Part shown: piece after piece, positions 7,043 through 36,945 of the stretch
Layout of the letters: the number at the start of each line of letters is the position of its first letter
How positions within the stretch are numbered: position 1 is the stretch's first letter
Assembly: GCA_964576615.1 (NCBI GenBank)
Contig: CAZNUU010000003.1
Coordinates: 6,523-70,522 of the forward strand
DNA from: an uncultured Candidatus Saccharibacteria bacterium
Lineage (GTDB): Bacteria > Patescibacteriota > Minisyncoccia > Phycocordibacterales > DATDWN01
Direction: 5' to 3'
Length of the DNA stretch: 64,000 bases
The notes under the pieces: generated by a model
Seen by the model: only the letters and a program-made list of their open reading frames with translations
Database searches by the model: none
What the model was told of the DNA's origin: nothing
Made by a program: the position numbers and the translations under genes

Positions 7043-7306
7043 ATGTCTTATGTAGTTTATATTCTATATAGTTTGAAAGACAAAAAATTATATGTTGGCT
7101 GTACTTCGAATATTGTTAAAAGAATAAAAAAACATAATGATGGCCAAGTATCAGCAACAGAGAATAGAAGACCACTTAAACTAATTTACAAGGAAGCATT
7201 TGTAGACAAAAAACCAGCTTTTAATAGAGAAAGATTTTTGAAAAGCTTGTGGGGAGCAAGAGACAAGAAAAAAATACTCAAAAATTATTTAGCGAGTATT
7301 GGCTAA
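7043..7306 (+). CDS. GIY-YIG nuclease superfamily protein (UPF0213-like)
   Basis: YVVYILYS...KLYVGCTSNIVKRIKKHN motif. Confidence 0.75.
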   Translation: MSYVVYILYSLKDKKLYVGCTSNIVKRIKKHNDGQVSATENRRPLKLIYKEAFVDKKPAFNRERFLKSLWGARDKKKILKNYLASIG

Positions 7307-8199: not shown

Positions 8200-8330
8200 C
8201 TAGTTTTAGTAGGCTTTCAAACTAGCGTAACAGGGCTGAGAGAGGCCCAAGTGAGGGTTAAGGAGTGCCGTGGCACGCCCTCGCCAAAGTAACGCTCCGC
8301 GTGGGAACCTCCCCTACGCGGCCTTTTTTA
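8200..8330 (+). ncRNA. Candidate GC-rich structured small RNA (or leaderless short ORF), promoter-like TTGACT-N16-TAGGCT upstream, hairpin CCGCGTGGG..CCCTACGCGG plus T-run at 3' end
   Basis: No downstream plus-strand gene; GC-rich in AT-rich context; only ORF is a 46-codon GTG frame running through the terminator. Confidence 0.25.
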
Positions 8331-15940: not shown

Positions 15941-16612
15941 TTATTTTGCTGGCCTAAGTTGCGAGAGAGCCTTCACTGCTGCTTTCGCATTGTTTATCTT
16001 GTTCTTACTTCGAGAGAAGAGTTTAGATGAAACTTCCTTTATACCTGCAAGTTCCAGGACTGTTCTTACCGAACTTCCAGCCATCACACCCTTGCCTTTA
16101 GCATTCATTATTTTTACAACAGAACTAGAATATTTTGCTTCAACTTCGTGAGGAATGGTTCCGTTTTTGGTTAAGTTTACTTTTATCATGTTTTTTCGAG
16201 CATCCCTTGCAGCCTTGTCGATAGCAATTGGAGTATCCCCCGCCTTGCCTAAGCCGACTCCAACTCGGCCCTTGTGGTCTCCAATTACAACTGCCACAGA
16301 AAAAGCAAATCTTCGTCCTCCGGTTACCACACGAGTTACACGTCTAATACTTATAATCTTTTGATCAAATTCAGATCTAGCTCTTGCTTCTCTTCGAGGT
16401 GCGCCCTTTCTAGGATTTTTCTTAAACTCCCTCCTAACCGGTTCAGCTTTAACCGGTGTTGCTTCTGAAATCTCAGCAATATTCGCACTATCGGCACCTT
16501 GTGCTAATGTTTCGACCGCTTCTTCTTGGCCGACGTCAGGAGTCGGCCCTCCGACCTCTGCGAGCGTCGGAGTTTTTATTTCCATATCTGCTTTTGTTTT
16601 TTTAGTTTCCAT
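15941..16612 (-). CDS. rpsE: 30S ribosomal protein S5 with ~75-aa acidic N-terminal extension
   Basis: S5 core VVTGGRRFAFSVAVVIGD... Confidence 0.9.
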   Translation of the reverse strand: METKKTKADMEIKTPTLAEVGGPTPDVGQEEAVETLAQGADSANIAEISEATPVKAEPVRREFKKNPRKGAPRREARARSEFDQKIISIRRVTRVVTGGRRFAFSVAVVIGDHKGRVGVGLGKAGDTPIAIDKAARDARKNMIKVNLTKNGTIPHEVEAKYSSSVVKIMNAKGKGVMAGSSVRTVLELAGIKEVSSKLFSRSKNKINNAKAAVKALSQLRPAK

Positions 16613-17970: not shown

Positions 17971-18156
17971 TTACCAGCTGGCTTTCTTTATTCCTGGTAT
18001 CTTACCTTCGTTCGCCAGTTCGCGGAAGCAAATTCGGCACAGACCAAAGTCTCTCATAAAACCTCTTTTGCGTCCACAGCGAAAACATCGGTTTGTAGCC
18101 CTAGTTCTATATTTAGGCTTCTTTAAAGCCCTTGCTTTAACACTTGTTTTCGCCAT
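17971..18156 (-). CDS. rpsZ: 30S ribosomal protein S14 type Z (zinc-binding)
   Basis: 61 aa, CxxC...CxxC. Confidence 0.9.
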
Positions 18157-18236
18157 TCTAATTAAAAATAACTCTCTCGAGTTGCGCTTTATACTAGCAA
18201 TTAGGCCATTTTAAGTCAATGCGAACGGCCGGCACC

Positions 18237-18413
18237 TTACGATGCCGGCCTTTTTCTGAGAGCCTCCTTTTCCTGGATTCCCATTCGGAACTTGTAGCGA
18301 CGATACATGAGTTTGATCTTGCTCACAGCATCGCTACGATCTTGCACTGCACGCACTGCATAGCCAACGCCTCCTGATACGATTGCGACTGTTAACGCTA
18401 CCTGAATGCTCAT
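18237..18413 (-). CDS. Small hypothetical protein, 58 aa (GC-rich cassette between rplE and rpsZ); not in ORF table
   Basis: Hand-translated MSIQVALTVAIVSGGVGYAVRAVQDRSDAVSKIKLMYRRYKFRMGIQEKEALRKRPAS; GGGAGAGG RBS; stop in loop of hairpin GGCCGGCA..TGCCGGCC (18227-18250); TTGACT-N17-TAGTAT restart promoter toward rpsZ at ~18195-18223. Confidence 0.45.
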   Translation of the reverse strand: MSIQVALTVAIVSGGVGYAVRAVQDRSDAVSKIKLMYRRYKFRMGIQEKEALRKRPAS

Positions 18414-18482
18414 GAAGAAACCTCTCCCATTTTTATATCACAAAATAAATCGTGTAAAAAGCCACATTTCTGTGGCCTTTTA

Positions 18483-19091
18483 CTACGCTGCGGCTGGAGT
18501 TTCTTTCTTCTTCCTTACCCTAGCCTTCTTTTCCTTCACAACTTCATCTTTAGTCTCAACTTTTTTAAATGGAAAACCTAGGTGTTTCAAAAATGCCTTT
18601 GTTTCTTCTTTATTTTTAATATTTGTAACAACCGTAACCGAAAGCCCGAACACATCTCGAAGATCTTCGTCCGATGTTTCCGGAAAAATTGTGTTTTCAC
18701 GAATACCTAGAGTGTAGTTACCCATACCATCAACAGAGTTAGCGGAGACACCTCGAAAGTCCTTTGTTCGTGGAAGAGCAATGTTTATTAATTTATCTAA
18801 AAAGTCGTACATCCTCTGACCTCGAAGAGTTATTTGCATCCCAACTGTATCGCCCTGTCGTATTTTAAAACCAGCCACAGAAATTTTTGCACCTTTTCTA
18901 ACCGGTTTCTGGCCTGTTATTTTTGAAAGCCTGTCTTCGATTAAATCAAGTTTCTTCTTGTCCTTACCTGCACTAATACCACAAGAGACTACCACTTTTT
19001 CTATTCGTGGAGCTTGCATAGCATTTGTATAATGAAACTCTTCTTTCATTCCTTCAAATGCTGTATTTATTTTTTGTTTAACTGATTCCAT
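18483..19091 (-). CDS. rplE: 50S ribosomal protein L5
   Basis: Sequence family. Confidence 0.9.
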   Translation of the reverse strand: MESVKQKINTAFEGMKEEFHYTNAMQAPRIEKVVVSCGISAGKDKKKLDLIEDRLSKITGQKPVRKGAKISVAGFKIRQGDTVGMQITLRGQRMYDFLDKLINIALPRTKDFRGVSANSVDGMGNYTLGIRENTIFPETSDEDLRDVFGLSVTVVTNIKNKEETKAFLKHLGFPFKKVETKDEVVKEKKARVRKKKETPAAA

Positions 19092-19093
19092 TT

Positions 19094-19312
19094 TTATTTT
19101 GTCTTCTTTACGTTAGATATGTGAATGGGCATAGCCTTATCCAGTATCTGCCCCTTCTCACCTCCTTTTCGTGGACCTTGGTGAACCTTGAGCACATTTA
19201 CCCCAGAGACAATGACTTTGTTCTCTTTTGGCAGAGCTTTAACAACTGTGCCAGTTTTGCCTTTGTCTTTGCCAGTTAAAACTATTACTTTGTCATCTTT
19301 CTTTACGTGCAT
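19094..19312 (-). CDS. rplX: 50S ribosomal protein L24
   Basis: Sequence family. Confidence 0.9.
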   Translation of the reverse strand: MHVKKDDKVIVLTGKDKGKTGTVVKALPKENKVIVSGVNVLKVHQGPRKGGEKGQILDKAMPIHISNVKKTK

Positions 19313-19322
19313 GATATTAAAA

Positions 19323-19700
19323 TTAGACCACTTCCGGAGCTAAGGAAATAATTTTCTGAAACCCCACTTCGCCAACCTCTCTTGGAATTGGACCGAAAAC
19401 ACGACCAGCTAAAGGTTCTTTCTTCTTTGGATCTTTTAGTATAAGAACAACTGCATTTTCATCAAAGCGAATGTAAGATCCATCTTTTCTCCTAAAGGGC
19501 GCTTTTTGCCTCACTACAATTCCACGAACTACATCTTTTTTCTTTATCGCCTCACGCGGTTTTGCTTTCTGAATTGAAAGCACCACAATCTCGCCGATGG
19601 AAGCATATCTTTTCTTGGATGATCCGAGCACTTTGAAAATTCTGCCGATTTTTCCACCGGAGTTGTCTGCAATTTTTACAATTGAGCGTGGTTGAATCAT
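19323..19700 (-). CDS. rplN: 50S ribosomal protein L14
   Basis: Sequence family. Confidence 0.92.
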   Translation of the reverse strand: MIQPRSIVKIADNSGGKIGRIFKVLGSSKKRYASIGEIVVLSIQKAKPREAIKKKDVVRGIVVRQKAPFRRKDGSYIRFDENAVVLILKDPKKKEPLAGRVFGPIPREVGEVGFQKIISLAPEVV

Positions 19701-19704
19701 AAAA

Positions 19705-19968
19705 TTAAATTACTTTGAAGTGTTTGGTCTTAGAAATCGGCCGACACTCTTCAATCTCCACAATCTCACCAAGTTTTTTAGTATTTCCTGGATCATGAAC
19801 CTTGAATTTTTTACTATAGGAAATGTACTTGCCGTATTTTGGGTGCTTTACATAACGAGAAACCAAAACAACGATTGTATCTTTCATCTTGTCAGAGACG
19901 ACTTTACCAGAAATTCTCTTGCGAGCTCCTTTTACTTCTGTATTTTGTTTTTGTAATGTTGCAGTCAT
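19705..19968 (-). CDS. rpsQ: 30S ribosomal protein S17
   Basis: Sequence family. Confidence 0.9.
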   Translation of the reverse strand: MTATLQKQNTEVKGARKRISGKVVSDKMKDTIVVLVSRYVKHPKYGKYISYSKKFKVHDPGNTKKLGEIVEIEECRPISKTKHFKVI

Positions 19969-19983
19969 TTTATTTTGAATATT

Positions 19984-20172
19984 TTAAGATTTCTTCGCAT
20001 TTAACAGAGTCAAAATTTTAGCAATATCTTTCCTTATCGCTCTGCCCTCTCTTACGTTTCTAGTATTACTGCCAGAGACAGAAAATCTGAAAGTTCTTAG
20101 AGCATTTCTCTTTTCCGTAAGGAGCGTTCCTAGTTCTTTACCACTTTTATTTTTTAGTTCTTTTATCTTCAT
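19984..20172 (-). CDS. rpmC: 50S ribosomal protein L29
   Basis: Sequence family. Confidence 0.85.
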   Translation of the reverse strand: MKIKELKNKSGKELGTLLTEKRNALRTFRFSVSGSNTRNVREGRAIRKDIAKILTLLNAKKS

Positions 20173-20186
20173 AAAGTTATCAGAAA

Positions 20187-20612
20187 TTAACTGTGGGTAG
20201 CAGAAATTACCTTGGTCTTAACTGGAAGTTTTGTCCCCGCTTTTCTAAGTGACTCTCTTGCTATCTCATCCGTTACACCGTCCACTTCAAAAATAATTCG
20301 TCCAGGCTTAACAGGAGCACAGTAGCCAAACAAATCACCCTTACCTTTTCCAAGTTTCACTTCCGCTGGTTTTTTTGTAAGAGGCATATCTGGAAAAACT
20401 CTTATCCAGATCTTGCCGGTCTTACCCAACTCTCGAGAAAGAGCTTTTCTAGCTGCTTCCAGTTGATTCGACATGATTCTGCCTCCGGTAATCGCCTTAA
20501 TTGCATGCGAGCCGAAATCAACATGCGTGCCGCGGGAAGCTACCCCAACCTTTTCCGGGTTTTTTCTAAATGTATGCCATTTTCTGTATTTAACTTTTTT
20601 TGGAAGCAGCAT
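20187..20612 (-). CDS. rplP: 50S ribosomal protein L16
   Basis: Sequence family. Confidence 0.92.
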   Translation of the reverse strand: MLLPKKVKYRKWHTFRKNPEKVGVASRGTHVDFGSHAIKAITGGRIMSNQLEAARKALSRELGKTGKIWIRVFPDMPLTKKPAEVKLGKGKGDLFGYCAPVKPGRIIFEVDGVTDEIARESLRKAGTKLPVKTKVISATHS

Positions 20613-20620
20613 AATATTTA

Positions 20621-21280
20621 TTATTTCTTAGCAAATACCTCACCTTTGTAGATCCAGACCTTTATGCCAATCCCGCCGTAAGGCAATCTGGCCTCGTACT
20701 TTGCAAATTCAACATCAGCTCGAAGCGTCTGGAGTGGAATTCTGCCTCTTTTTATTTTTTCCTTTCTGGCCATAGTTGCTCCACCAAGTCGCCCTGACAA
20801 TTCCAGCTTTACCCCTTGGACATCTCGGTTCGCCATAACTTTTTCCACGACCTGCTTTGCAACTCGCCTAAAAGGAAGTCTTTTCTCTAATCCATCTGCA
20901 ATCATTTGAACCACGATCATCGCATTCGATTCCGGAGACTTAACTTCTTTTATATCAACCTTCACTTCACCTCCAGAAGAAAGTTTGTTTTTGGACAGAA
21001 ATGACAAAATGTCGTTTTTCAGCTTTACTGCACCATCACCTGAGCGACCAATAATCATTCCAGGTCTAGATGTTTCAATAATAATTCTTAAAATTTTTTC
21101 TCCTCTCTCCATCTCGATATTTGAAACATAAAAACCTCGTAATTTCTTTTGTAAATGTTCTCGAAGCAATACATCGCTTTTCAAAAATTCTTTGTATTTT
21201 GACTTCACGCCAAACCAGCGAGATTTCCAATCTCTGATAATGCCTAGTCTGTGGGAATATGGATGGACTGTGTGTGTCAT
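20621..21280 (-). CDS. rpsC: 30S ribosomal protein S3 (start at MTHTVHP; ORF table extends upstream into rplV)
   Basis: S3 N-terminus MTHTVHPYSHRLGIIRDWKSRWF. Confidence 0.9.
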   Translation of the reverse strand: MTHTVHPYSHRLGIIRDWKSRWFGVKSKYKEFLKSDVLLREHLQKKLRGFYVSNIEMERGEKILRIIIETSRPGMIIGRSGDGAVKLKNDILSFLSKNKLSSGGEVKVDIKEVKSPESNAMIVVQMIADGLEKRLPFRRVAKQVVEKVMANRDVQGVKLELSGRLGGATMARKEKIKRGRIPLQTLRADVEFAKYEARLPYGGIGIKVWIYKGEVFAKK

Positions 21281-21281
21281 G

Positions 21282-21629
21282 TTATTTCTTTGCTTTGCCC
21301 TCAGCCAATTCAACATATATTGAACTTGTGCGCTTGCGTATAGGATGAGCACTACCCCTCGCAGCTGGTCGTCTCCGGTAAAGGATTGCTCCCCCATCAA
21401 CTGTAATTTTCTTTACAATTAAGTTCTCTGTTGGAATATCTAAATGTTTTGCATTGGCCAAAGCAGAGAGAATTAGATTTTTTAATGGCTTGGAAGCCTT
21501 TTTAGTAACGAAATCTAAGTTTACTAAAACATCAGAAACTTTTTTGCCCCGTAAGGTGTTGGCCACCAACCTCATCTTGCGAGGAGCTTGCCGGAAATCA
21601 TTTAGTAATGCGTGTGCCTTCTTTTCCAT
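21282..21629 (-). CDS. rplV: 50S ribosomal protein L22
   Basis: Sequence family. Confidence 0.9.
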   Translation of the reverse strand: MEKKAHALLNDFRQAPRKMRLVANTLRGKKVSDVLVNLDFVTKKASKPLKNLILSALANAKHLDIPTENLIVKKITVDGGAILYRRRPAARGSAHPIRKRTSSIYVELAEGKAKK

Positions 21630-21637
21630 GATAAAAA

Positions 21638-21985
21638 TTATTTCTTAGCTGCATCTGCGGTAGTTGCTTTGGCAGCTTGAGCTGCAGCTATTTCACCTTC
21701 TTTTTTAGCCTGCTCCAGTTCTTTTTGCATTCGACCTCCGTGTTTTATGAATTTCTTAGTCGGAGAAAACTCTCCTAGTCTGTGACCCACCATATCTTCC
21801 GAAACTAAAACATCTAAATGTGTTTTGCCATTATGAACCCCAAAAGTAAAACCAATCATCTCTGGAGAAATAACACAGGCTCGAGACCAAGTCTTAATAA
21901 CCCCTGTCTCCAGTGGCTTTTTGCCTTCGATCTTCTTTAGAACACGAGGATCGACATATGGACCTTTTTTACTTGAGCGTGTCAT
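21638..21985 (-). CDS. rpsS: 30S ribosomal protein S19 with Ala/Lys-rich C-terminal extension
   Basis: Sequence family. Confidence 0.9.
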
Positions 21986-22155
21986 TTTTTAATTTCTTAA
22001 AAAGAAAAACCACGATGTTAGTGGTACTTGACTGAGACTTAGCACCGCAAACAAATGAGTAAGAGGTAATGGCTTCTTACGTGGAAACATACTATACAAA
22101 TACCCCTAAAATGTCAAAGGCGGTACCAGACTTTCCGATACCGCCTATAGTGCTA

Positions 22156-22458
22156 TTACATAACATGCACAGAAGAGACCATCCCCTCGTGGACTTCCCA
22201 GGCTCGTTCTAGAAGAATGGCGACCTCGACGGTTGTCATCTCCTTTTTACGAGCAAAGACCTCCACGATCTCAACCATCTCCTGTGGTGGATTTGCTCCG
22301 AGATAGACCGCGGCCCAACCTGCGGCCCCTTTCGGATCACTGGGCGGGGTTGGCGGAGGATCAATCTCACGAATGAGCTCTGCTGCTGCACTCCGTACCC
22401 TGTCGAACAGTTCAGATCGTCTCAACTGACCCATCTGACAAGCCTCCTCTGGCACCAT
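22156..22458 (-). CDS. Hypothetical Pro-rich protein (GC-rich cassette between rpsS and rplB)
   Basis: TTGACA 22495-22500 upstream; hairpin 22119-22145 downstream, then TTGACA-N17-TAGTAT restart promoter toward rpsS. Confidence 0.45.
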   Translation of the reverse strand: MVPEEACQMGQLRRSELFDRVRSAAAELIREIDPPPTPPSDPKGAAGWAAVYLGANPPQEMVEIVEVFARKKEMTTVEVAILLERAWEVHEGMVSSVHVM

Positions 22459-22543
22459 GCCATCCAACCAGAACATTAATTAATTTCATAAAAATGTCAA
22501 AGGGCGACGTAGGTTTTCACCTAGTCGCCCCTGAAGAACCCCC

Positions 22544-22792
22544 TCACTTCACCAGACGTGCTAGCACTCTCTCGGTGCACGGCACATAGGTGATTGTGAG
22601 ACTCTGCTCTGATAGTGTGGCTCCATTGTGCGTTGCCACCATTGCGAAGCAGAGATCGGTCGTCTCGTCTTTTCCGTAGACGAGAGACTTGATGATCTCA
22701 CGCGCATTTGCTGGTTTCACCTCGGAAGCCTGCTGCGTGCAAGCAACCGAGAGAATCGCCACCAGAAAAGCCGTTACGAGCAATTTGGTCAT
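22544..22792 (-). CDS. Hypothetical small secreted lipoprotein-like protein (GC-rich cassette)
   Basis: Signal peptide ending LSVAC; AGGAGG 22800-22805. Confidence 0.55.
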   Translation of the reverse strand: MTKLLVTAFLVAILSVACTQQASEVKPANAREIIKSLVYGKDETTDLCFAMVATHNGATLSEQSLTITYVPCTERVLARLVK

Positions 22793-22811
22793 GTCTGACC
22801 CTCCTGCTACA

Positions 22812-22840
22812 ATTATACACTAATATTAGATAATAGTCAA
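22812..22840 (-). promoter_or_regulatory. Promoter TTGACT-N17-TATAAT for cassette 22544..22792, immediately after rplB terminator hairpin 22847-22872
   Basis: Read from sequence. Confidence 0.55.
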
Positions 22841-22872
22841 GTAAGAAAAGAGCCCTATGTAGGGCTCTTTTC

Positions 22873-23715
22873 TTACTTCTGCTTCCCAACTCGTCTACGA
22901 CTAACAATATATCTATTTGAATATTTCTTAGGAGTTCGAGACTTCTGCCCCTTACCGGTTGGTTTACCGTAAACTGAGATTGCTCGCCTCCTACCTCGGC
23001 CCTGCCTTTGTTCACCTCCACCGTATGGGTGATCAACTGGGTTTTGAGCAGTACCTCGAACTGTAGGACGAATGCCGAGCCAGCGACTTCTTCCAGCTTT
23101 GCCCAAATTAACCAATCTATTTTCATCGTTTGAAACATCACCAATGGATGCCCAAGCATTTTCCGAAACTTTTCTAACTTCGGTTGATGGCATTTTTATA
23201 TCAACATAACCGGCATCTTTTGCCACCACCTCCACATAGTTTCCCGCAGATCGGGCTAGCTTTGCCCCACCGCCTGGTTTTATTTCCACATTGTAAACAA
23301 ATGTACCGATATCAATATTTTTTAAAGGAAGCCTATTACCGGCTTTTCTTTCTGCTTTTTCCGAAGTGATATAGGTTTCTTCAACCCTGGCTTGTTTTGG
23401 TATAAGCACATATCTTTTTTCTCCATCTTGGTATTGAGCAAGACCGATGAAACCAGATCTATTTGGATCATACTCCACTGTTTTTAAAATATAAGGCACA
23501 TCAAATTTGTCGTATCTAAAATCCACTTCCCTGAAAAGCCTCTTGTGTCCACCACCTTTGTGACGAGTTGTAATCTCCCCAGCATTATTTCGTCCCATTG
23601 CTCTTTTGAATCCATGAGTGAGAGATTTATTTGGTTCTGAAGCAGTCAAAAAGTTGCCGAATGAAATTGTCGACATTTGCCTTCTACTTTTTGTATATGG
23701 TCTGTATCGTTTCAT
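22873..23715 (-). CDS. rplB: 50S ribosomal protein L2
   Basis: Sequence family. Confidence 0.95.
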   Translation of the reverse strand: MKRYRPYTKSRRQMSTISFGNFLTASEPNKSLTHGFKRAMGRNNAGEITTRHKGGGHKRLFREVDFRYDKFDVPYILKTVEYDPNRSGFIGLAQYQDGEKRYVLIPKQARVEETYITSEKAERKAGNRLPLKNIDIGTFVYNVEIKPGGGAKLARSAGNYVEVVAKDAGYVDIKMPSTEVRKVSENAWASIGDVSNDENRLVNLGKAGRSRWLGIRPTVRGTAQNPVDHPYGGGEQRQGRGRRRAISVYGKPTGKGQKSRTPKKYSNRYIVSRRRVGKQK

Positions 23716-23719
23716 TTTT

Positions 23720-24058
23720 TTACAAGTTTTCTATTTTTGTTCCAGGCTTAAGGTATATATATGCTTTTTTGTAACCAGATTTTTTACCCCGCTTGCCCCT
23801 GACAAAAACATTTTTAGCTGGAATAGTAACTGTGTTTATTTTAATTGGAGAGATCTTGTATTTTTCAACAAAAGCTTTTTCCACATTCGCCTTTGTAGCA
23901 CCTGGGTCAATTTCAAAAACGTACACCGAGTTTTCAGACTTAACCGTAGCTTTTTCGGTAACATGAGGACTTATTAAAATGTGAGATGTATCTTTCACCC
24001 CGTGAGATAACGTGTTGTAAGATCTTTGATTATTTTTTTGTAAAGTTTGTTTTGCCAT
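23720..24058 (-). CDS. rplW: 50S ribosomal protein L23
   Basis: Sequence family. Confidence 0.88.
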   Translation of the reverse strand: MAKQTLQKNNQRSYNTLSHGVKDTSHILISPHVTEKATVKSENSVYVFEIDPGATKANVEKAFVEKYKISPIKINTVTIPAKNVFVRGKRGKKSGYKKAYIYLKPGTKIENL

Positions 24059-24079
24059 ACTCGTTTAACAACAACTATT

Positions 24080-24832
24080 TTATCTCATGGGGTTATCTAA
24101 CTTACCAGATATTTGGGCGAGTGATTTCTCCGGATTTGAAATAACCACATATTTGTATTTCATAAGATTAAGAGGATTTAGATTGCGAATCTCATCTACG
24201 TGCATGTTAGAGAAATTTCGAAAACTTTTTTCTGTATTTACATCCTTGGAATCAAGAGCAATGTAAGCAGAATTTTTCCCTTTCCTAAGTAGAGATTCGT
24301 ACCCCTTAACCTTTGAAAGAGAAACCAAAACTTCTCTCGCTTCTTTGGTCTTTGGAGCCTTAAGAGAAAGATCGTTTACAAATAAAATCTCACCTTGTTT
24401 TAGTTTTCGAGAAAGAATAGTGTAGAGAGCCTTTGCCTTCATTTTCTTGTTTACTTTTCTGTAAAAATCTTTTTCATTGGTAGGACCGTGAGTTACACCA
24501 CCTCCAACCCAGATTGGAGATCGAATAGAACCGTGCCTGGCTCGTCCCGTACCTTTCTGTTGCCAAGGTTTTTTACCCCCCCCAGAGACATCACCTCGGC
24601 CTTTCGTATGAGCAACTGGAGTTCTTTTGGTTGATTCCATAGATGTAACCACTTGGTGAACTAAGTCAGCATTCCAAGGTAAACCAAAAACTGTAGCAGG
24701 TAATTCCAGTTTTCCGGAAGCTGTACCTTTTGTGTTATAGACTGTTGTCTCTAAGCCGTTAGTTGCTTCGGTAGCTACCTTTTTAGTTTTTCTTACTTTT
24801 GTTTCAGGAGTTTCCATAATATTTAAATTCAT
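24080..24832 (-). CDS. rplD: 50S ribosomal protein L4
   Basis: Sequence family. Confidence 0.9.
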   Translation of the reverse strand: MNLNIMETPETKVRKTKKVATEATNGLETTVYNTKGTASGKLELPATVFGLPWNADLVHQVVTSMESTKRTPVAHTKGRGDVSGGGKKPWQQKGTGRARHGSIRSPIWVGGGVTHGPTNEKDFYRKVNKKMKAKALYTILSRKLKQGEILFVNDLSLKAPKTKEAREVLVSLSKVKGYESLLRKGKNSAYIALDSKDVNTEKSFRNFSNMHVDEIRNLNPLNLMKYKYVVISNPEKSLAQISGKLDNPMR

Positions 24833-24846
24833 CTTATCTAACTGGT

Positions 24847-25458
24847 TTATCCGTTTACTTCTATTAGTGTGCCTCTTCTTCCGGGAACTGCACCCTGTAT
24901 TAAAAGTTCACCTGTCTCTGCATTTGCCGAAATAACTGTCAGACCTTTTGATGTAACTCGCTCGCCGCCCATTCTGCCGGCCATTCTCTTGCCTTTAGCC
25001 ACACGACCTCCATCACGACCACCTCCTCCGAGTGAGCCAGGCTCTCTTTCAGAATGTTTTTGACCATGAGTTCGCGGACCACCTTTAAAACCGTGTCTTT
25101 TTACGCCGCCTTGAAAACCTTTGCCTTTTGAAATACCAGAGACTGTAACTTTATCACCTGCTACAAATGAAGTTAAATCAATTATGTCCCCAATTTTAAC
25201 TGTTGGTTCCTCACTCGTTCTAAATTCTTTCAAAACTTGATAGTTACCTCCTTTCATCTGACCCTTAACTGCTTTAGAAATATTTTTTTCTTTTCTGGAA
25301 CCAAAACCGACTTGAATAGCATTATAACCATCTGTCTTTACAGTTTTAACGGCTGTAACAGTCAATGGACCAGACTGAAGAACAGTAACAGGATGAACCA
25401 GTCCTGCCTCGTCAAAAACTTGAGTCATATTTAATTTTTTTCCCAATGTGAATTTCAT
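24847..25458 (-). CDS. rplC: 50S ribosomal protein L3
   Basis: Sequence family. Confidence 0.92.
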   Translation of the reverse strand: MKFTLGKKLNMTQVFDEAGLVHPVTVLQSGPLTVTAVKTVKTDGYNAIQVGFGSRKEKNISKAVKGQMKGGNYQVLKEFRTSEEPTVKIGDIIDLTSFVAGDKVTVSGISKGKGFQGGVKRHGFKGGPRTHGQKHSEREPGSLGGGGRDGGRVAKGKRMAGRMGGERVTSKGLTVISANAETGELLIQGAVPGRRGTLIEVNG

Positions 25459-25635
25459 CTCTATTTACCTAATTTGCGGTAGCGGTTTGCGGACAGTAAT
25501 GGGGACAGATAATCCTCAACATTGCCCTTCGCTAGCTACCATAAAAAAATCGCTTATGCGATTGGAATACAGTATCAGATATCGTTTAAAAAGACAACTG
25601 CAAATTTAGCCCCAGAAATAGAGTGTTTTTTCAGA

Positions 25636-25664
25636 TTGACAAATTAGTTGATTTGTGATATTAT
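25636..25664 (+). promoter_or_regulatory. Promoter TTGACA-N17-TGaTATTAT, AGGAGG 25671-25676
   Basis: Near-identical to module at 7784-7824. Confidence 0.55.
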
Positions 25665-25682
25665 GTACACAGGAGGCAGATC

Positions 25683-25886
25683 ATGTTGGTATTGAGACTG
25701 GCCTGGTTAGTACTCGGTTTGCTCCTCATCACGGTAATTGGAGGAGCGATCGACAGTGCGACAGGCGCGGGCTTGGCACTTCTGGTGCTTTCGCCGGCTG
25801 CTCGCATGTTCCATTTCGTGGTAGGAGGCCTGTGGGGAGTGGGAATTTACTTCCTCATAACGAGGCTTCTCATCCGCAAACGCTGA
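25683..25886 (+). CDS. Small membrane protein, 2 TM (GC-rich cassette between rpsJ and rplC, antisense to the operon)
   Basis: Hairpin CGCCGGTCC-aagttt-GGACCGGCG at 25892-25915. Confidence 0.55.
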   Translation: MLVLRLAWLVLGLLLITVIGGAIDSATGAGLALLVLSPAARMFHFVVGGLWGVGIYFLITRLLIRKR

Positions 25887-25925
25887 AAGAACCCACGCCG
25901 GTCCAAGTTTGGACCGGCGATTTGT

Positions 25926-26372
25926 TTAGATAATTTTTACGTCTATGTTAACTCCACTCGGAAGTGAAAGATTTGTAAGCGCCTCCATTATTTTTGGGGT
26001 TGGATTTAAAATATCAATAAGTCTCTTATGAATTCTCATTTCAAATTGTTCCCGGGCATTTTTGTAAACAAAAGATGAACGATTGACTGTATACTTTTTA
26101 TTCTCCGTAGGAAGTGGAATTGGACCTTCAACTATTGCATCGTACCTTAGAGCTGTATCTATAATTTGCTTTACTGAAACATCTAGGATTTTATACTCAT
26201 AAGCCCTTACTCGAATTCGAAGTTTGGAGATAACATCACCTTTTGCGGGAGCTTTTGCTGCTTTAGGTGCAGGAGTTTTTGTGGCAGTTTTTGTTGCTCT
26301 TGGTTTTCTAGCTTTTGGCTCTTTTGTTTCCTCGCCTGCGCGGGCAGGTGTTGCAGCTTTCTTCGTCGGCAT
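25926..26372 (-). CDS. rpsJ: 30S ribosomal protein S10 with Lys/Ala/Pro-rich N-terminal extension (ATG 26372; ORF table begins at TTG 26381)
   Basis: S10 core ...RIRVRAYEYKILD...PLPTENKKYTVNRS... Confidence 0.88.
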   Translation of the reverse strand: MPTKKAATPARAGEETKEPKARKPRATKTATKTPAPKAAKAPAKGDVISKLRIRVRAYEYKILDVSVKQIIDTALRYDAIVEGPIPLPTENKKYTVNRSSFVYKNAREQFEMRIHKRLIDILNPTPKIMEALTNLSLPSGVNIDVKII

Positions 26373-26392
26373 AATTTTCAAATGATTAAAAG

Positions 26393-26421
26393 ATAGTAGC
26401 AGGTATTAGTTTTTTGTTCAA
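26393..26421 (-). promoter_or_regulatory. Putative S10-operon promoter TTGAAC-N17-TACTAT
   Basis: Read from sequence; short leader with no RBS. Confidence 0.5.
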
Positions 26422-26492
26422 CCCTACTAGTAGAGCATAGCTCACTACGGGGTAAAGTAAACGAATAGGCGCGCACCTTTTCAGTGCGCGCC

Positions 26493-27095
26493 CTACTTCT
26501 TCGCAGAACGTTTAGGCGCCGGCTTTCTCGGACGAAGTTGCGACTTCACGTAAGAGGCATACTTGTCCTGAAAGATGGCTACGTGAAAGTGGGGCGGACT
26601 TTTCTCTCGCGTCGCCTCAATCACCTTTAGCCCCTCGAGGTAAAGCAGGGTCTTTTCAAATTGCAGCACACACGACGGGTCGGCTGGAATTCGAAAATCG
26701 ACTGCAATGCCTGTCGGATGAACCGACTTGGGCGAAGCGTTTCGGGGTTGCTCTATCTTTGATCTCGTCGCACTAGTCACAACCAGATCACAGATCGGCG
26801 CAATTTCTTGAGCAAATCGCTCCACGAAAAGTTTCGCGACCGGCCGAACAAACGGATGAACGGCACCCTCGACCCGGTAACGACTGTTACCAGGAAGTGC
26901 CACCAGTCTCCCCTGCCTTATGAAACGATCCACATCAGCAGGAGTCTCTAGCCGGGTGAAACCCTCTCGGGTTGCATCTTTGTCCATCCGATCCACGGAC
27001 GCCTTCGAGCCTTTTAGGCTCGGTTTTTGTGCCTGTGCAGACATTGTGAAGCACAAGCACAGTGCAAGTGCACACAAAAGTTTCTGCATATTCAC
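26493..27095 (-). CDS. Secreted peptidase M15-like (VanY/YcbK-type zinc D,D-peptidase fold) (GC-rich cassette)
   Basis: Signal peptide; S-x-HPTGIAVD, E-x-x-H and H-F-H motifs; TTGACT-N17-TAAAAT, AGAGGTGA RBS. Confidence 0.45.
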   Translation of the reverse strand: MNMQKLLCALALCLCFTMSAQAQKPSLKGSKASVDRMDKDATREGFTRLETPADVDRFIRQGRLVALPGNSRYRVEGAVHPFVRPVAKLFVERFAQEIAPICDLVVTSATRSKIEQPRNASPKSVHPTGIAVDFRIPADPSCVLQFEKTLLYLEGLKVIEATREKSPPHFHVAIFQDKYASYVKSQLRPRKPAPKRSAKK

Positions 27096-27222
27096 CTCTT
27101 TTCGGATTTTACACTATTTTTGAAATAAAGTCAAATATAAAATCTAATTTTTTATAAACAAAAACCGCCGACCAATTTGGTCGGGGTCGCTCTCGTGGGG
27201 CAGAAGCCCCACGAGACAGAGT

Positions 27223-27441
27223 TTACGCTCTTTCAGGGCCAAAGGTCACTTCGACGCTGTGGTTAGTGTTGATCTCCAGGAGAAATTCTGTGAGATCTTC
27301 GGGTGAAATGCCCATTGCCCGAGCGAAGTTGTCCAGATCCCGGCACGGCTCCACCAGGATCTTTGGATTTCGACGGACGAGTTCCTCGAGGAACGCGCGG
27401 CATTGCGCAGTTACCTTGATGGTTCTGATCGCGTGTGTCAT
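27223..27441 (-). CDS. Hypothetical small protein (GC-rich cassette)
   Basis: TTGACA-N16-TATTCT, GGTGGAGG 5 nt from second ATG. Confidence 0.5.
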   Translation of the reverse strand: MTHAIRTIKVTAQCRAFLEELVRRNPKILVEPCRDLDNFARAMGISPEDLTEFLLEINTNHSVEVTFGPERA

Positions 27442-27650
27442 GAAAGCCTCCACCGATGAGAATACTTTAAAACCTTAGAATGTCAACAAAACCGCCTTTC
27501 GGCGGCTTTGTTAGATTCTTTAAGAAATTTCAATTTTTGATGCAATGCTAGGCGGACGAGGAAAATAATGTGAGCCTTATCGAGTATAAGGTGAACATTA
27601 TTTTACCGAAGTCCAACAACGCAGTGCGCTAAAATTGGAATTTCTTCTGT

Positions 27651-28844
27651 TTAGGCGATGATCTTGGTGACCACCCCTGCACCGACTGTCTTGCCCCCCT
27701 CCCTAATAGCAAATCTAGTCTTATCTTCTAGAGCAACTGGAGCCACAAGTTTAACTTTGAAAGTAACTGTATCTCCTGGCATAACCATTTCTACTCCTTC
27801 GTTAAGTGTTACATCTCCAGTTACGTCTGTTGTTCGAACGTAGAACTGTGGCTTGTAACCAGTGAAAAATGGTGTGTGTCTTCCACCTTCCTCTTTCTTA
27901 AGGATGTAAACTTCGGCCATAAATTCTGTATGAGGTGTCACTGATTTTGGCTTTGCAAGAACCTGACCTCGGGAAATGTCCTCTTTCTTAGCACCTCGGA
28001 GAAGAATTCCGGCATTGTCTCCGGCCTGACCTTGGTTAAGAGATTTGTTAAACATTTCAATACCAGTAACTGTGTATTTTTGAGTATCTCGTAGACCAAC
28101 ACACTCGATTTCCTCGCCAACATTTACGACTCCTCTTTCAATTCTTCCAGTAACTACAGTACCTCTTCCTTCAATTGAGAAGATGTCTTCAACTGGCATT
28201 AGAAACGGTTTATCTAACTCTCGAGTTGGAAGTGGGAATGCATCTAGAGCATTTGCAAGCTCAAGTATTTTCTTTGCCCACTCATCATTGTTGTCCTTCG
28301 ACTCTAGAGCCTTTAGACCTGAACCTCTTATAACTGCTGTGTTAGCACCATCGAAGCCTTGTTTTGTAAGGAGTTCTCGAACTTCTTCCTCAACCAAATC
28401 AATAAGCTCTTTGTCTGGTACCATGTCGCATTTGTTTAGAAACACGATCATTTGTGGCACACCAACTTGTTTTGCCAAAAGTACGTGTTCTCGTGTTTGT
28501 GGCATAACACCGTCAGTTGCAGCAACAACTAGAATAGCGCCGTCCATCTGGGCAGCACCAGTAATCATGTTCTTAATAAAGTCCGCGTGACCAGGCGCAT
28601 CTACGTGTGCATAGTGTCTACTTGGTGTGGAATACTCCGAGTGGTGAAGCGAGATGGTAATACCTCTTGCTTTTTCTTCCGGAGCTTTGTCGATTTGGTC
28701 AATACCTTCGACACGAGCTTCATAGCCACCGCCTTGTCGTCCTAGAACGTTTAGGATGGAAGCTGTTAATGTTGTCTTTCCATGGTCAACGTGACCGATG
28801 GTGCCCACATTCATGTGAGGCTTACTGCGATCAAACTCTGCCAT
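27651..28844 (-). CDS. tuf: Elongation factor Tu
   Basis: [22 protein letters not shown] motifs. Confidence 0.97.
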
Positions 28845-28867: not shown

Positions 28868-29260
28868 TAAGTTTAAAATTTGGCGAACTCCTTACAGGAG
28901 CTGTACACCTCTCGCATTTTGATTACAAAACGCTCAAGGTCTTGCGAAGCTACGCTTCTCACCTCGTTCCAAAATTAAACATGTTCGTCATCTTAGTGTT
29001 ACTAAGACTCCTTACCTGTTTAATTTCTCACGTCGGATTTCATCCAAATTTTAAACTCAGTGTTAATCTAAAATTATTACTAATAATGCAAACGCCATTT
29101 TGGAAATTCCAAAAACTCAATGTTCGAGAAACCTGAATTCTTAAAACTTCCTAAAACAAAAATCGCAAAAGCGACGAATAATATATTAGACAATATGTAT
29201 TAAATAGTCAACAAGAATGAAAACAGCCCCTCGCCAAGTTGGCGAAGGGCTGAACAAAAA

Positions 29261-29752
29261 CTACGACTGCAGACGGGGCAGGGGCGCTGTCTCGACGAGT
29301 ACCTGGCGAAGATTCGCGAGATACTTTTCGAACTTGCCCGCAAGCATCATCTCCTGCATTGAGGAGCTGATGTACTTGCCCTCGCGAGCGAGCCCGGCGA
29401 TCGCGTCGAGTCGTTCACCGACATCCGCCATCGAGGCGCCCAGCTTGCGCGCCTGGATCAGCTGGGGCACGAAGTAATTGGAAAGTGATCCCTCGACCAT
29501 CTCGGGATGATCGGTCTTCACGAGCCAGATCTGCCCATCGAGGTTTGCGAGGACCGCCGCCGGACTGGAATCCCGGATCGCCCGGACTTCCTTCCCGAGC
29601 TGCGCGTTCTTTCGCTCGAGTCCCCGCATCTCCTCACCCGCCTTGGCGATCGACACCGATAGCCGGTACGTCACGTATCCGGCGCCCGACGCCACCGCAA
29701 GTGCGAGAGATGCCACCACCGCGAGAACCACGAAACTTCTTCTGCTCACCAT
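29261..29752 (-). CDS. Signal-anchored coiled-coil protein (GC-rich cassette)
   Basis: TTGACA-N17-TTTAAT, AGGAGG 6 nt from ATG; terminator hairpin 29226-29253. Confidence 0.55.
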   Translation of the reverse strand: MVSRRSFVVLAVVASLALAVASGAGYVTYRLSVSIAKAGEEMRGLERKNAQLGKEVRAIRDSSPAAVLANLDGQIWLVKTDHPEMVEGSLSNYFVPQLIQARKLGASMADVGERLDAIAGLAREGKYISSSMQEMMLAGKFEKYLANLRQVLVETAPLPRLQS

Positions 29753-29808
29753 CTCTGACCTCCTTCTTATATTAAAACAAAATTAATCGTATTTGTCAAA
29801 TAGAACAT

Positions 29809-30126
29809 CTAGATACTTTGGAGCATGAGATCCTCCTTTAAGGCCTGTCTTTCTTCTATCACCAGGGAATCAAAAGTTGGAATTCTTGCCTTTAAAAAAC
29901 TCAAAACTTCGTGAGGAGTAGTTTTGTCCTGACCAAGTAAATTATCCAACTCGTCCTGTTCCCTCTCAGATAAAATATCTAGAGATCTTGTAAGAAGAGC
30001 TTGGTATAAAATTTTACCGATTCTTTCCGCAACCTCTCTTTGTTTTATGGGAGGAAGACCTTCTAGGTTCCACTCCTTAATTATTTCTTTTAAAAGAATC
30101 ATCTTAGATTTTTTATTAGTATCCAA
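29809..30126 (-). CDS. Small acidic protein, paralog of 39385..39684
   Basis: Shared C-terminal motif ...SFL+.+IP.FD.LV.E...LK. Confidence 0.5.
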   Translation of the reverse strand: MDTNKKSKMILLKEIIKEWNLEGLPPIKQREVAERIGKILYQALLTRSLDILSEREQDELDNLLGQDKTTPHEVLSFLKARIPTFDSLVIEERQALKEDLMLQSI

Positions 30127-31352
30127 GCTCTCTCAAAGACTTGCTGTTGTACTGTCTTCGCAAAAAGAAACCCTGCCTTGTATTTTTTATCCAATTTCAC
30201 ATCCGGACCTTTCTTGGTCATTGTTCCCCTTGCAATTTCTACACCGTCACAAGTAATTTTAATTACCACTGTCTCCCCATCCATTTCTTTAATAATTTCT
30301 CCCTTGTGGCCTTCAAACTCAATAGGAATTGTTTCACTTTGTGGTAAAGAAACGACACCTTCCTCATTACCTGCCTTAAACGACTCGGGTTGGTTAATTA
30401 TTGAGGTCGAAACTACTTCTGGTTCTGGAGCTGCCGGCACGGCCTCGTTTACTCTAAGACCACTAAAAGTGCTCGGGGATAGATTCTCAGGTGAGAACAA
30501 ATTAAAATCATGATTTAGTGCGACAGACAAATCGTCTGCACTCCCCTCATCTAGATTGCCCCAAGTCTTTTCAGCTTTAATAATAATTCTTTCAGATCTT
30601 GGTGAACTTCTGACCAGTTCCCGTCTTATCATTTCAATTTCACCCAGATCAAATTCTGGCCCAGGGCCCAGACTCTCTCTCTTATCTCTCCTAGTTCTGT
30701 AATATTCATCCCTAGCTGCTATTAATTCACTTGGCTCATCTTTTTGAGGCATGCTGCGAACACCACCTAGGGATTCCATCAATCTGCGAAAAACATCCTT
30801 GTTTTTTTTAGCATTCTCTAAGTAGGGACCTAGTAATTTAATGTAATTTTCTCTAGCTTTTATTAACTTTCTATCTAGATCGATGGAAGGCTCAGTTTCC
30901 GTGTTCCTGGCAACTACTCCGGGCCTAATCCCGAGAAGTGAGAGTACATCCCTCGTCTCAAGGGGCGTAATCAAAGTGGAGTTGGAGATTATTTTAACTA
31001 CCTCCTCCATAGAAGCCCTGTCTGTAATATCCCAAATTAAATTCTTTACATTTGCTCGGTCGACAGAAATCTTTTTCAAATAATCTAGAACAGGGCCTGG
31101 AGCGGAAAAAGTTGCATCTTTTTTTTCTTTCTGTTCTTTGGGTGGAAGCGGTGCTGGCTCGGAGAATTGTTTTTCAATTTTTTTATCTTGCTCCGTTTCA
31201 AGCGGAGGAAGTTCGGTTGGTTTTGCCATTGCCTCAAACCCAATTATTTTTATTGGGACTCTAGTCTCGTCTAAACCAACGGAGTCAACGACTTCGTCAA
31301 AGGCTGGAGGGTGAATACTTACTTCACTTTCGATTGGAGAAGGACTATTCAT
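30099..31352 (-). CDS. Hypothetical protein (417 aa), local similarity to 36946..39357
   Basis: PSELIAARDEYYRTRR vs PQELVDARSEYFKAKR. Confidence 0.5.
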   Translation of the reverse strand: MNSPSPIESEVSIHPPAFDEVVDSVGLDETRVPIKIIGFEAMAKPTELPPLETEQDKKIEKQFSEPAPLPPKEQKEKKDATFSAPGPVLDYLKKISVDRANVKNLIWDITDRASMEEVVKIISNSTLITPLETRDVLSLLGIRPGVVARNTETEPSIDLDRKLIKARENYIKLLGPYLENAKKNKDVFRRLMESLGGVRSMPQKDEPSELIAARDEYYRTRRDKRESLGPGPEFDLGEIEMIRRELVRSSPRSERIIIKAEKTWGNLDEGSADDLSVALNHDFNLFSPENLSPSTFSGLRVNEAVPAAPEPEVVSTSIINQPESFKAGNEEGVVSLPQSETIPIEFEGHKGEIIKEMDGETVVIKITCDGVEIARGTMTKKGPDVKLDKKYKAGFLFAKTVQQQVFERAWILIKNLR

Positions 31353-31414
31353 CCCCCAATTTTAACTTTTTTGTTTTCTCGGAGCAATTTAAAAAGCGGA
31401 AAAACTGTGTTTTT

Positions 31415-31582
31415 AAAAGCCTTTCGCAGGAGCTTAGAAAATAAACGCAAATTAGATAGCTGAAGGCATTGTTTGAGCGTAGCGAGTTTGCCGAGAAGCT
31501 AAGTCTCATTTGCGCATTATTTTCTTGAGCGACGAGAAGTTCGCTAGGCCAGCAGGCCTAGATAGATTGCTTTTAAAAATAC
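31415..31582 (+). repeat. Copy 1 of ~165-bp repeat (inverted copy at 43800-43968, ~90% identity)
   Basis: Manual alignment, e.g. AAAAGCCTTTCGCAGGAGCTTAGAAAATAAA...CTCATTTGCGCATTATTTTCTTGAGCGACGAGAAGTTCGCTAG shared. Confidence 0.6.
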
Positions 31583-31593
31583 GTTTTTGGAGC

Positions 31594-33735: not shown

Positions 33736-33837
33736 TTTTTAAAACAAAAAGGCCTTGCGGCAGATAAAACTATATACTAAAAGCTTTTTTGTTGCAATTA
33801 GATGGTCGTAGTGATAGAAATTATCTAGGAGGTACTG

Positions 33838-34092
33838 ATGTTTCACCCAGATGAAGATGTCAACAGTGCAATTGTCCGTCTCATCGATGCCCTGACAAGC
33901 TGGGAACGCTCAACAGGCCGGGAATCATTTCTGGTTTTAGTTCCAGTTGAATCAGAGGAGAGGGTCGTCGTGGTTGACTCTGGCAGACTCATGGATCTGG
34001 AGTCTCTCACAGATGAACTGATCGCTGAACGTGTCTTGCAGGCTCTGGTCTGCCATGACAATCCAGAGGTTCATCGTTTTATCGATGGCTAG
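33838..34092 (+). CDS. Hypothetical acidic small protein (GC-rich cassette)
   Basis: TTGCAA-N17-TAGAAA, AGGAGG 5 nt from ATG; hairpin CTAACAGAGG..CCTTTGTTAG downstream. Confidence 0.5.
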   Translation: MFHPDEDVNSAIVRLIDALTSWERSTGRESFLVLVPVESEERVVVVDSGRLMDLESLTDELIAERVLQALVCHDNPEVHRFIDG

Positions 34093-34125
34093 GGCTCGAC
34101 CTAACAGAGGCCGGGCCTTTGTTAG

Positions 34126-36900: not shown

Positions 36901-36901
36901 A

Positions 36902-36927
36902 AAAGCGCTGATGAAAGCGCTTTTTTG
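36902..36927. terminator. Bidirectional hairpin AAAAAGCGCT-gatgaa-AGCGCTTTTTT
   Basis: Between 803-aa gene and ATPase gene; TATAAT follows. Confidence 0.45.
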
Positions 36928-36945
36928 TTATATCTTTTTGTTTAG

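Follow-up and report, generated by a model that had tools for sequence, protein, structure and literature searches.

We analysed a stretch of 64,000 nucleotides (64 kb; hereafter the window) of contig CAZNUU010000003.1, from an uncultured Candidatus Saccharibacteria bacterium, which carries the str-S10-spc region of ribosomal protein (r-protein) genes on its minus strand. The genome is small and AT-rich (GC 0.41), and its closest sequenced relatives are metagenome-assembled genomes (MAGs) of Paceibacteria/Parcubacteria, with at most 83-85% identity in ribosomal protein L2. The genes run in the order fusA, tuf, rpsJ, rplC-D-W-B, rpsS to rplE, rpsZ to rplO, secY and adk. The S10 and spc genes that are separated here are adjacent in most bacteria. 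Small open reading frames (ORFs) are intercalated among them, on the minus strand unless stated otherwise: a 72-aa ORF (27223-27441) and a 198-aa ORF (26493-27089) between tuf (27651-28844) and rpsJ (25926-26381), an antisense 67-aa ORF (25683-25886, plus strand) between rpsJ and rplC (24847-25458), an 82-aa ORF (22544-22792) and a 92-aa ORF (22156-22434) between rplB (22873-23715) and rpsS (21638-21985), and a 58-aa ORF (18237-18413) between rplE (18483-19091) and rpsZ (17971-18156). An earlier reading of this DNA, referred to below as the original prediction, had drawn attention to these extra genes between normally contiguous r-protein genes; the separation is real, and every gene it named lies where it had been placed. 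The ORF at 22156-22434 is likewise present, but the longer 106-aa start proposed for it is not the start on record, which gives 92 aa; exact look-ups set this start and those of 27223-27441 and 26493-27089.

Together with a 163-aa ORF upstream of tuf, which the original prediction did not include, these genes form seven units that we call cassettes. They differ sharply in composition from their surroundings, with GC contents of 0.50-0.62 and third-position GC contents (GC3) of 0.51-0.77, compared to 0.34-0.44 and about 0.3 in native genes. Each looks like an autonomous promoter-ORF-hairpin unit: all seven are flanked by a promoter-like site and a hairpin predicted from the sequence, and every one has a Shine-Dalgarno sequence and a GC-rich hairpin. 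Read from the sequences, the products of five of the seven are predicted to be membrane, lipoprotein or secreted proteins.

Upstream of tuf, cassette 7 (29213-29799) has a promoter at 29769-29799, the 163-aa ORF (29261-29752) and a strong terminator (29213-29252); it encodes a membrane-anchored ORFan with GC 0.62 and GC3 0.77. Cassette 5 (27158-27506, counting the tuf terminator at 27487-27506) comprises a promoter (27459-27486), the 72-aa ORF (GC 0.54) and hairpins at 27192-27215 and 27158-27184, and is followed by cassette 6 (26468-27134), with a promoter at 27106-27134, the 198-aa ORF and a terminator at 26468-26493. The antisense cassette 4 (25636-25919, plus strand) starts from TTGACA-N17-TATTAT with a TG extension (25636-25664); its ORF (GC 0.55) encodes a two-helix membrane protein and is followed by a bidirectional hairpin (25896-25919) common to rpsJ. 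In the gap before rpsS, cassette 2 (22490-22840) carries the promoter TTGACT-N17-TATAAT (22812-22840), a lipoprotein-like 82-aa ORF with a signal peptide and Cys (GC 0.53), and a hairpin plus TTTGACATTTTT at 22490-22531, whereas cassette 3 (22108-22499; 92-aa ORF, GC 0.55) terminates in a hairpin at 22108-22145 (reverse complement AAAATGTCAAAGG). The original prediction described this hairpin as fused to the -35 hexamer of the rpsS promoter, and we find the same arrangement, in which the U-tract (TTTGACATTTT) also serves as the -35 element. Cassette 1 (18227-18458) has a weak promoter (18429-18458), a 58-aa ORF with an N-terminal hydrophobic helix (GC 0.50) and a GC-rich hairpin (18227-18250) that overlaps the stop codon.

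Several searches bear on whether these ORFs are genes. An exhaustive HMMER search of a 1.84-billion-protein library returned families for 8 of 10 GC-rich cassettes tested from across the window, all composed of metagenomic proteins, with one relative annotated as Candidatus Paceibacterota. These families, together with the 333 homologues of the 198-aa protein of cassette 6, indicate that the cassettes are real genes. In the public collection, the proteins of all seven cassettes are singletons whose sources are a single NCBI contig of 79.6 kb and the Logan assemblies of two sequencing runs; the 58-aa protein is a singleton in a collection of 15 billion proteins.

The 198-aa protein (gene GC 0.53) is the best characterised. 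It matches the Pfam family DUF5715, in which H124, D131 and H167 are invariant and H169 is present in at least 90% of sequences, providing H-x6-D and H-x-H ligands. A structural model with a predicted local distance difference test score (pLDDT) of 92 finds Hedgehog-N, MepA and VanXY as best structural matches (E about 2e-3, template modelling score, TM, 0.43-0.58), and a sequence search of the PDB gave no match. Members of the LAS group (MD clan) combine H-x(3-6)-D and H-x-H zinc ligands with a Hedgehog/DD-peptidase fold; on the modelled structure, the protein is a secreted, LAS-fold zinc-peptidase-like member of this M15-like group, so that the earlier label "M15-peptidase-like" holds at the level of the fold. 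A DUF5715 gene occupies the identical position between tuf and rpsJ in the related locus L088 (51% identity; gene GC 0.48) and in a contig from the JGI metagenomes.

A near-consensus promoter lies ahead of each downstream r-protein block, and a sigma-70-type promoter follows each co-oriented cassette, in line with the original prediction. Its motif TTGACA-N17-TAGTAT is correct before rpsS (22117-22089), but the -35 hexamer before rpsZ (18219-18191) reads TTGACT. The rpsZ promoter (18191-18219), TTGACT-N17-TAGTAT with a TG extension, is followed by a hairpin/U-run leader (18164-18183) and is kept in L002, L003, L005, L006 and L010; in L005, both the promoter and a small hairpin leader are present even though rplE and rpsZ are only 110 bp apart with no gene inside. 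The promoter and leader of rpsS span 21986-22117: TTGACA-N17-TAGTAT at 22089-22117 opens a leader of about 100 nt that ends in a terminator-like hairpin (21999-22025) just ahead of the start codon. A near-identical motif, TTGACAT-N-TTTTGTATAGTAT, with its leader, was found in 9 distinct relatives with unrelated upstream genes. The rpsJ promoter (26393-26421; TTGAAC..CTGCTACTAT) is kept in L001, L003, L006 and L008, and the segment 26412-26459 upstream of rpsJ also matches L003. The tuf promoter (29183-29211) reads TTGACT-N17-TAATAT, and its leader region at 29070-29140 is kept in relatives.

The region upstream of rplC (25459-25590) contains a promoter (25567-25590), a hairpin (25543-25563) and a conserved structured element (25478-25540). 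This RNA folds into two stems with the invariant loops GCTAGCGAAGGGCAATGTTG and CATTACTGTCCGCAAA; across 10 genomes, its 20 base pairs include 9 with compensatory changes. Judged by sequence covariation, it has the conserved structure in the 5' untranslated region by which r-protein leader RNAs are recognised, making it a candidate for a new r-protein leader. The leaders of rpsS (21986-22088) and rpsZ (18164-18190) could, from their predicted hairpins, act as attenuators. A search of Rfam gave no match for the rplC, rpsS or rpsZ leaders.

At the other ends of the blocks, intrinsic terminators follow rplE (18456-18481) and rplB (22843-22871), and hairpins with U-runs follow rpsJ (25896-25919, shared with cassette 4) and tuf (27487-27506). 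Terminator-like hairpins are enriched twofold in the window (36 found versus 18 ± 4.2 expected). Promoter-like sites overall are not enriched (39 found versus 34 ± 5.6 expected from shuffles); of the seven sites scoring at least 10 of 12, five fall in inter-gene spacers and two inside genes. Four of these five spacer sites are on the operon strand and one is on the plus strand ahead of the antisense ORF.

We mapped 24 genes of the cluster in 80 loci from related genomes and determined the length of each junction, counting gaps of more than 250 bp as open. The gap between rplB and rpsS is open in 82% of 66 loci (median 730 bp, maximum 8.9 kb), that between rplE and rpsZ in 74% of 50 loci (median 756 bp), and that between fusA and tuf in 92% of 38 loci. 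The junction of rpsJ and rplC is open in 28% of 75 loci, mostly closest relatives, whereas 17 other junctions are open in only 0-2%. As far as the compared sequences tell, the breaks in the cluster are site-specific and clade-wide. The original prediction saw an insertion into essential polycistronic operons and named ancestral interruptions in related genomes as the outcome that would speak against it; comparison of gene order revealed exactly such interruptions. Since the clade as a whole shares these open junctions, with 17 others almost never open, insertion into a polycistronic operon is not supported.

The promoters show a corresponding distribution. In the roughly 80-110 loci scored, the 250 nt preceding the gene contain a stringent sigma-70 match in 40% of cases for rpsS, 42% for rpsZ and 43% for tuf, compared to 0-2% for internal genes. 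In BLASTN comparisons with L003, homology extends through rpsZ to 18219 and through rpsS to 22120, which is exactly to the -35 hexamers; it is lost over the cassettes and returns in rplE and rplB. We therefore do not support the proposal that the cassettes bring their own restart promoters. The promoters and leaders before rpsS, rpsZ, rplC, rpsJ and tuf are very probably ancestral rather than cassette-borne, because relatives keep them next to other inserts or none.

The open junctions, or slots, hold different genes in different genomes. The 375 slot ORFs of the relatives fall into 302 similarity clusters, nearly all of them singletons. Among 168 related loci, counterparts of window cassettes exist only for DUF5715 (in L088) and for the family of the window gene at 1733-2011 (G1733), a relative of which occupies the rplB-rpsS slot of L091. 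Comparing the cassettes of the window with same-slot ORFs of relatives otherwise yielded non-significant matches only (the 92-aa ORF matched the ORF preceding rpsS in L088 at E = 0.18).

Nor are such genes confined to the r-protein genes. About 20 small GC-rich genes are spread over the whole 64 kb, all intergenic and each with a promoter and a hairpin, so the cassettes are not specific to the ribosomal cluster. They also adjoin tRNA-Ile and the transfer-messenger RNA (tmRNA) gene and sit in the gaps between an M50 peptidase gene and rpsL and between rpsG and fusA. A Pfam scan of ten of the genome-wide GC-rich genes produced one weak helix-turn-helix (HTH) match only. Looking for shared cassette ends, we found no attC-like site, terminal inverted repeat, target-site duplication or inverted-repeat family. 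An origin from defence systems was rejected: a PADLOC scan of ten cassette proteins gave no credible match, the sole hit being marginal (E = 0.0085).

Some of these outlying units have features of their own. The tRNA-Ile adjoined by GC-rich cassettes (3493-3567, minus strand) has, according to ARAGORN, the anticodon TAT (UAU). A tRNA-Ile with a UAU anticodon is an uncommon bacterial means of reading AUA. The terminators at 1683-1712 and 3075-3105 belong to two different GC-rich cassettes with unrelated ORFs and share a near-identical hairpin (AACCGGGCTC...GAGCCCGGTTCGT-TTTTTATT). Directly upstream of the tmRNA gene lies an 87-aa GIY-YIG-like ORF (7043-7306, plus strand; GC 0.29), and a GC-rich cassette (7831-8136) lies directly downstream. 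Two further GC-rich stretches, 8200-8330 (plus strand) and about 41900-42110 (minus strand), are each flanked by a terminator and a promoter-like site but contain no convincing ORF. Both may encode small RNAs, and neither matched Rfam, even at E values up to 1.

Taken as a whole, we regard it as probable that these loci are built from ancestral sub-operons whose spacers serve as high-turnover slots for moron-like accessory genes. In this model, the str-S10-spc region would ancestrally have consisted of five or more transcription units (tuf; rpsJ; rplC-rplB; rpsS-rplE; rpsZ onward), each ending in an intrinsic terminator and starting with its own conserved sigma-70-type promoter and leader. The units would probably be autoregulated separately, for which the covarying RNA before rplC and the attenuator-like hairpin before rpsS are candidates. 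Spacers running from a terminator to the next promoter would be transcriptionally neutral and could thus serve as slots for small accessory genes throughout the clade. These slots, like some twelve further intergenic sites of the window, appear to hold autonomous promoter-ORF-terminator units of 58-198 codons, which would add the expression of mostly membrane, lipoprotein or secreted products without disturbing r-protein transcription. The units are proposed to turn over fast and to be taken from GC-rich patescibacterial relatives, probably via DNA uptake. The analyses described above directly support the anatomy of the locus, the clade-wide positions of the breaks and the genome-wide spread of cassettes; they also show that promoters and leaders are ancestral and that slot contents are not homologous between genomes.

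The foreign appearance of the cassettes raises the question of where they come from. Members of cassette families are compositionally native in some GC-rich contigs (L082, 0.57; L169, 0.56; L174, 0.62) and stand out as GC-rich outliers in AT-rich hosts: 0.53 in L170 (host GC 0.365), 0.59 in L172 (host 0.42) and 0.54 in L175 (host 0.42). In a set of 115 loci, slot ORFs whose GC exceeds that of the host by more than 0.08 are present in 22 of 86 AT-rich or mid-GC loci versus 0 of 29 GC-rich loci. An instructive case outside the ribosomal finding is a 185-aa gene (42217-42774, minus strand; GC 0.57) in the slot between the M50 peptidase gene and rpsL. Its family fills the same slot in the window, in L172 and in L175, and stays GC-rich in these AT-rich Paceibacteria; the flanking proteins are 74-93% identical compared to 30-44% for the 185-aa protein, whose distances do not follow those of the flanks. 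This family is one of two GC-rich families that keep their slots in other AT-rich genomes while being only 30-52% identical.

These compositions are consistent with cassettes being high-turnover acquisitions from GC-rich Patescibacteria, a proposal that we judge to have about an even chance of being right. The window encodes ComEC and PilB (the type IV pilus ATPase), which makes DNA uptake a probable route, and highly conserved flanking genes may aid replacement within the same slot. A more specific version is correspondingly more tentative, and on balance we doubt it: fixed slots of AT-rich Paceibacteria would be reloaded by natural transformation with small GC-rich genes from GC-rich Patescibacteria or from host bacteria, with ribosomal and EF-Tu genes as homology arms.

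A number of observations weigh against this picture of slots and acquired cassettes. No near-identical donor of any cassette was found, the best database identities being 51-57%, and we found no GC-rich genome with DUF5715 in the tuf-rpsJ slot or with the 185-aa family in the M50-rpsL slot. Slot-keeping by the two GC-rich families could equally reflect vertical descent under a locus-specific force that raises GC. The 163-aa protein matched only itself, with no homologue, among 5.8 billion proteins. No relative with more than about 85% L2 identity was found among GTDB representatives and JGI metagenomes, and at this distance the age of any cassette is not datable. Promoters, terminators and unit boundaries are sequence predictions backed by conservation only. 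Some cassette hairpins, such as that at 18227-18250, have no U-run, and read-through from such a hairpin into the next unit is possible from its predicted structure.

The most serious competitor to recent acquisition is long residence: the GC-rich genes would have descended vertically in their slots while evolving fast, and a local force, such as GC-biased gene conversion at loci prone to recombination or selection on the composition of the mRNA or protein, would keep GC high. This would explain why the 185-aa family sits in the M50-rpsL slot of three AT-rich genomes with GC 0.54-0.59 and GC3 0.60-0.75, why DUF5715 shares the tuf-rpsJ slot in the window (GC 0.53) and L088 (0.48), and why L172 and L175 have the terminator of the 185-aa gene in common when their ORFs are only about 30% identical. 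However, L172 and L175 have flanks that are 81-93% identical at the amino acid level, yet their 185-aa proteins are the most distant of all. Slot contents are also mostly unrelated between genomes, all three codon positions fit the composition of a genome with 52-62% GC, and family members are compositionally native in GC-rich genomes. Moreover, we know of no mechanism that holds GC3 at 0.6-0.77 in a genome with GC3 0.3, which we count against this explanation. We consider it unlikely, but not negligible.

An origin from phages, with the cassettes as morons or as remnants of prophages or other integrative elements, appears improbable. The architecture fits the definition of a moron, namely an independent unit that deviates in composition and separates genes which are neighbours elsewhere (PMC3594210); some cassettes adjoin tRNA-Ile and tmRNA, and one encodes an HTH protein. 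Nonetheless, tblastn of 22 cassette proteins against 50,697 phage records gave no match, and ten cassette proteins (the seven of the cluster and three others) compared with PHROG produced only one marginal match (E = 0.009). IMG/VR contained no relative of the 185-aa family or of DUF5715, and neither an integrase or structural gene nor an att-like direct repeat was found, nor did the cassettes share their ends.

Still less credible is the explanation first offered for the locus, namely that foreign, terminator-bearing cassettes were newly inserted into essential S10/spc operons and that the downstream genes were rescued by cassette promoters. The foreign composition, the near-consensus promoter after each co-oriented cassette and the cassette hairpins abutting -35 hexamers all seem to favour it. 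It conflicts with the retention of promoters and leaders in relatives with different or no inserts, with the resumption of L003 homology at the -35 element, with the site-specific and clade-wide nature of the breaks, and with the synteny of the DUF5715 cassette in L088 and the JGI contig, which also argues against the insertions being recent. The observation behind the original prediction is confirmed, and its interpretation is partly supported.

The least likely explanation is a chimeric assembly in which reads of AT-rich and GC-rich populations were joined. In its favour, the contig (79,565 bp) derives from a metagenome, and AT-rich and GC-rich Paceibacteria do co-occur in one JGI metagenome (3300025323; shown for that metagenome only). 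Against it, each of about 40 switches would need to coincide with non-conserved intergenic DNA and to sit precisely between a hairpin and a promoter, and the unrelated assemblies L006, L078, L170, L172 and L175 display the same pattern. Logan assemblies of two runs (L086 and L087) also independently reproduce both junctions of the 163-aa cassette with AT-rich native genes (that of L086 extending as far as the region of the tuf promoter), which shows that the mosaic does not stem from chimeric joining.

The model of ancestral units with exchangeable spacer contents has partial parallels elsewhere. In Gammaproteobacteria and Bacilli, small numbers of genes are known to have been inserted between units of the translational cluster (PMC6735719, PMC8046335), for example bfd-bfr between str and S10 or tusDCB between rpoBC and str (PMC8046335). 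Such operon-cluster invasion consists of a few unrelated genes between two cluster units, with the order within units kept (Brandis 2021, PMC8046335), and the window shows the same pattern. Its boundaries lie elsewhere, however: between rplB and rpsS inside the classical S10 operon, between rplE and rpsZ inside spc, and between rpsJ and rplC. In addition, these boundaries are open throughout most of an entire class, nearly every genome has its own contents there, and the inserts of this genome are compositionally foreign.

The term moron denotes a transcription unit of its own that is expressed independently of the operon around it, deviates in base composition and lies between genes found side by side in related genomes ("The moron comes of age"; PMC3594210). 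Like a phage moron, each cassette is a small ORF of deviant GC with its own predicted promoter and terminator. Unlike one, it resides in a cellular chromosome among r-protein genes rather than in a phage; it has no phage, PHROG or IMG/VR relatives; and two cassette families keep their slot in other genomes. On placement the comparison points both ways, as the composition is clearly deviant but the flanking genes are separated in most relatives as well, by other genes. Morons were reportedly first described in HK97/HK022.

The pneumococcal cps locus, a variable locus between dexB and aliA, is exchanged by homologous recombination in its flanks. The slots likewise combine conserved flanks, unrelated or very divergent contents and encoded DNA-uptake machinery, but each holds one or two tiny genes rather than a pathway, and recombination in the flanks is putative. 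Autoregulatory leaders of r-protein genes include the S10 leader with its L4-dependent attenuator in E. coli and several Rfam leader families. Conserved structured 5' leaders are also present at the r-protein units of the window, one with a terminator-like hairpin before the start codon; here the genes preceded by such leaders are rplC, rpsS and rpsZ and not rpsJ or rplE, and the leaders match no Rfam family.

Other classes of element were rejected. Integron cassettes carry attC at their 3' end, are arrayed by intI/attI and are usually promoterless; the cassettes described here have no shared repeats at their ends, are dispersed, carry their own promoters and are accompanied by no integrase in the window. 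They flank tRNA-Ile and tmRNA in the manner of an integrative island, but neither an integrase nor a duplicated tRNA end was found. As single-copy units with no shared ends, they are not transposons or miniature inverted-repeat transposable elements (MITEs) either. The window does contain a separate MITE-like element, an inverted pair of copies of about 200 nt (31394-31595 and 43783-43986; 88-90% identical) with terminal inverted repeats of about 27 nt, one located between fusA and a 417-aa gene and the other downstream of rpmB.

This 417-aa gene and a 105-aa gene occupy the gap between fusA and tuf (29809-31352, minus strand); they are native, AT-rich genes rather than cassettes and are kept in close relatives (homologues in L003-L006 and L008). 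Positional counterparts of the 105-aa ORF in L088 and the JGI contig belong to Pfam DUF5663, whereas the protein of the window itself has no significant Pfam match. Upstream of tuf, at 28889-29050, two modules of 70-90 nt recur in either orientation in junction spacers of L003, L008, L018 and L001 and may be small mobile or regulatory elements in the same slots. The str operon is also split, with about 7 kb between rpsG and fusA (33736-40943) compared to only about 300 bp in L003; this stretch encodes a 924-aa homologue of VirD4/TraG-like coupling proteins, an 803-aa unknown protein and three small GC-rich genes. Among the r-proteins themselves, S10 (25926-26381) and S5 (15941-16612) have Lys/Ala-rich N-terminal extensions of about 50-70 residues and L5 (18483-19091) a basic C-terminal one, all common to relatives, and L30 is absent between rpsE and rplO.

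In the literature searched, we found no description of split S10/spc operons in the candidate phyla radiation (CPR). The findings indicate that transcription of S10 and spc as the classical operons is not universal and that, in a large class of uncultivated bacteria, both have been divided anew at precise points, with unit-specific promoters and with leader RNAs as candidate new autoregulatory elements. There is also a practical side, as scaffold phylogenies based on 16 ribosomal proteins and binning by GC or tetranucleotide composition cross slots of foreign composition, which is relevant to the quality control of MAGs. Why genes in conserved slots of AT-rich genomes stay GC-rich is a puzzle of base composition, and one that has now become testable. 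If a locus-specific process that raises GC holds GC3 at 0.6-0.77 in a genome with GC3 0.3, it would be as novel as the reloading of slots. The slots mark where streamlined episymbiont genomes of about 1 Mb keep fast-changing genes, mostly for envelope or secreted proteins, which are candidates for host interaction. If the slots are indeed reloaded, the region of the genome that is conserved best would also be the one that takes up its most variable set of genes, those directed to the cell surface.

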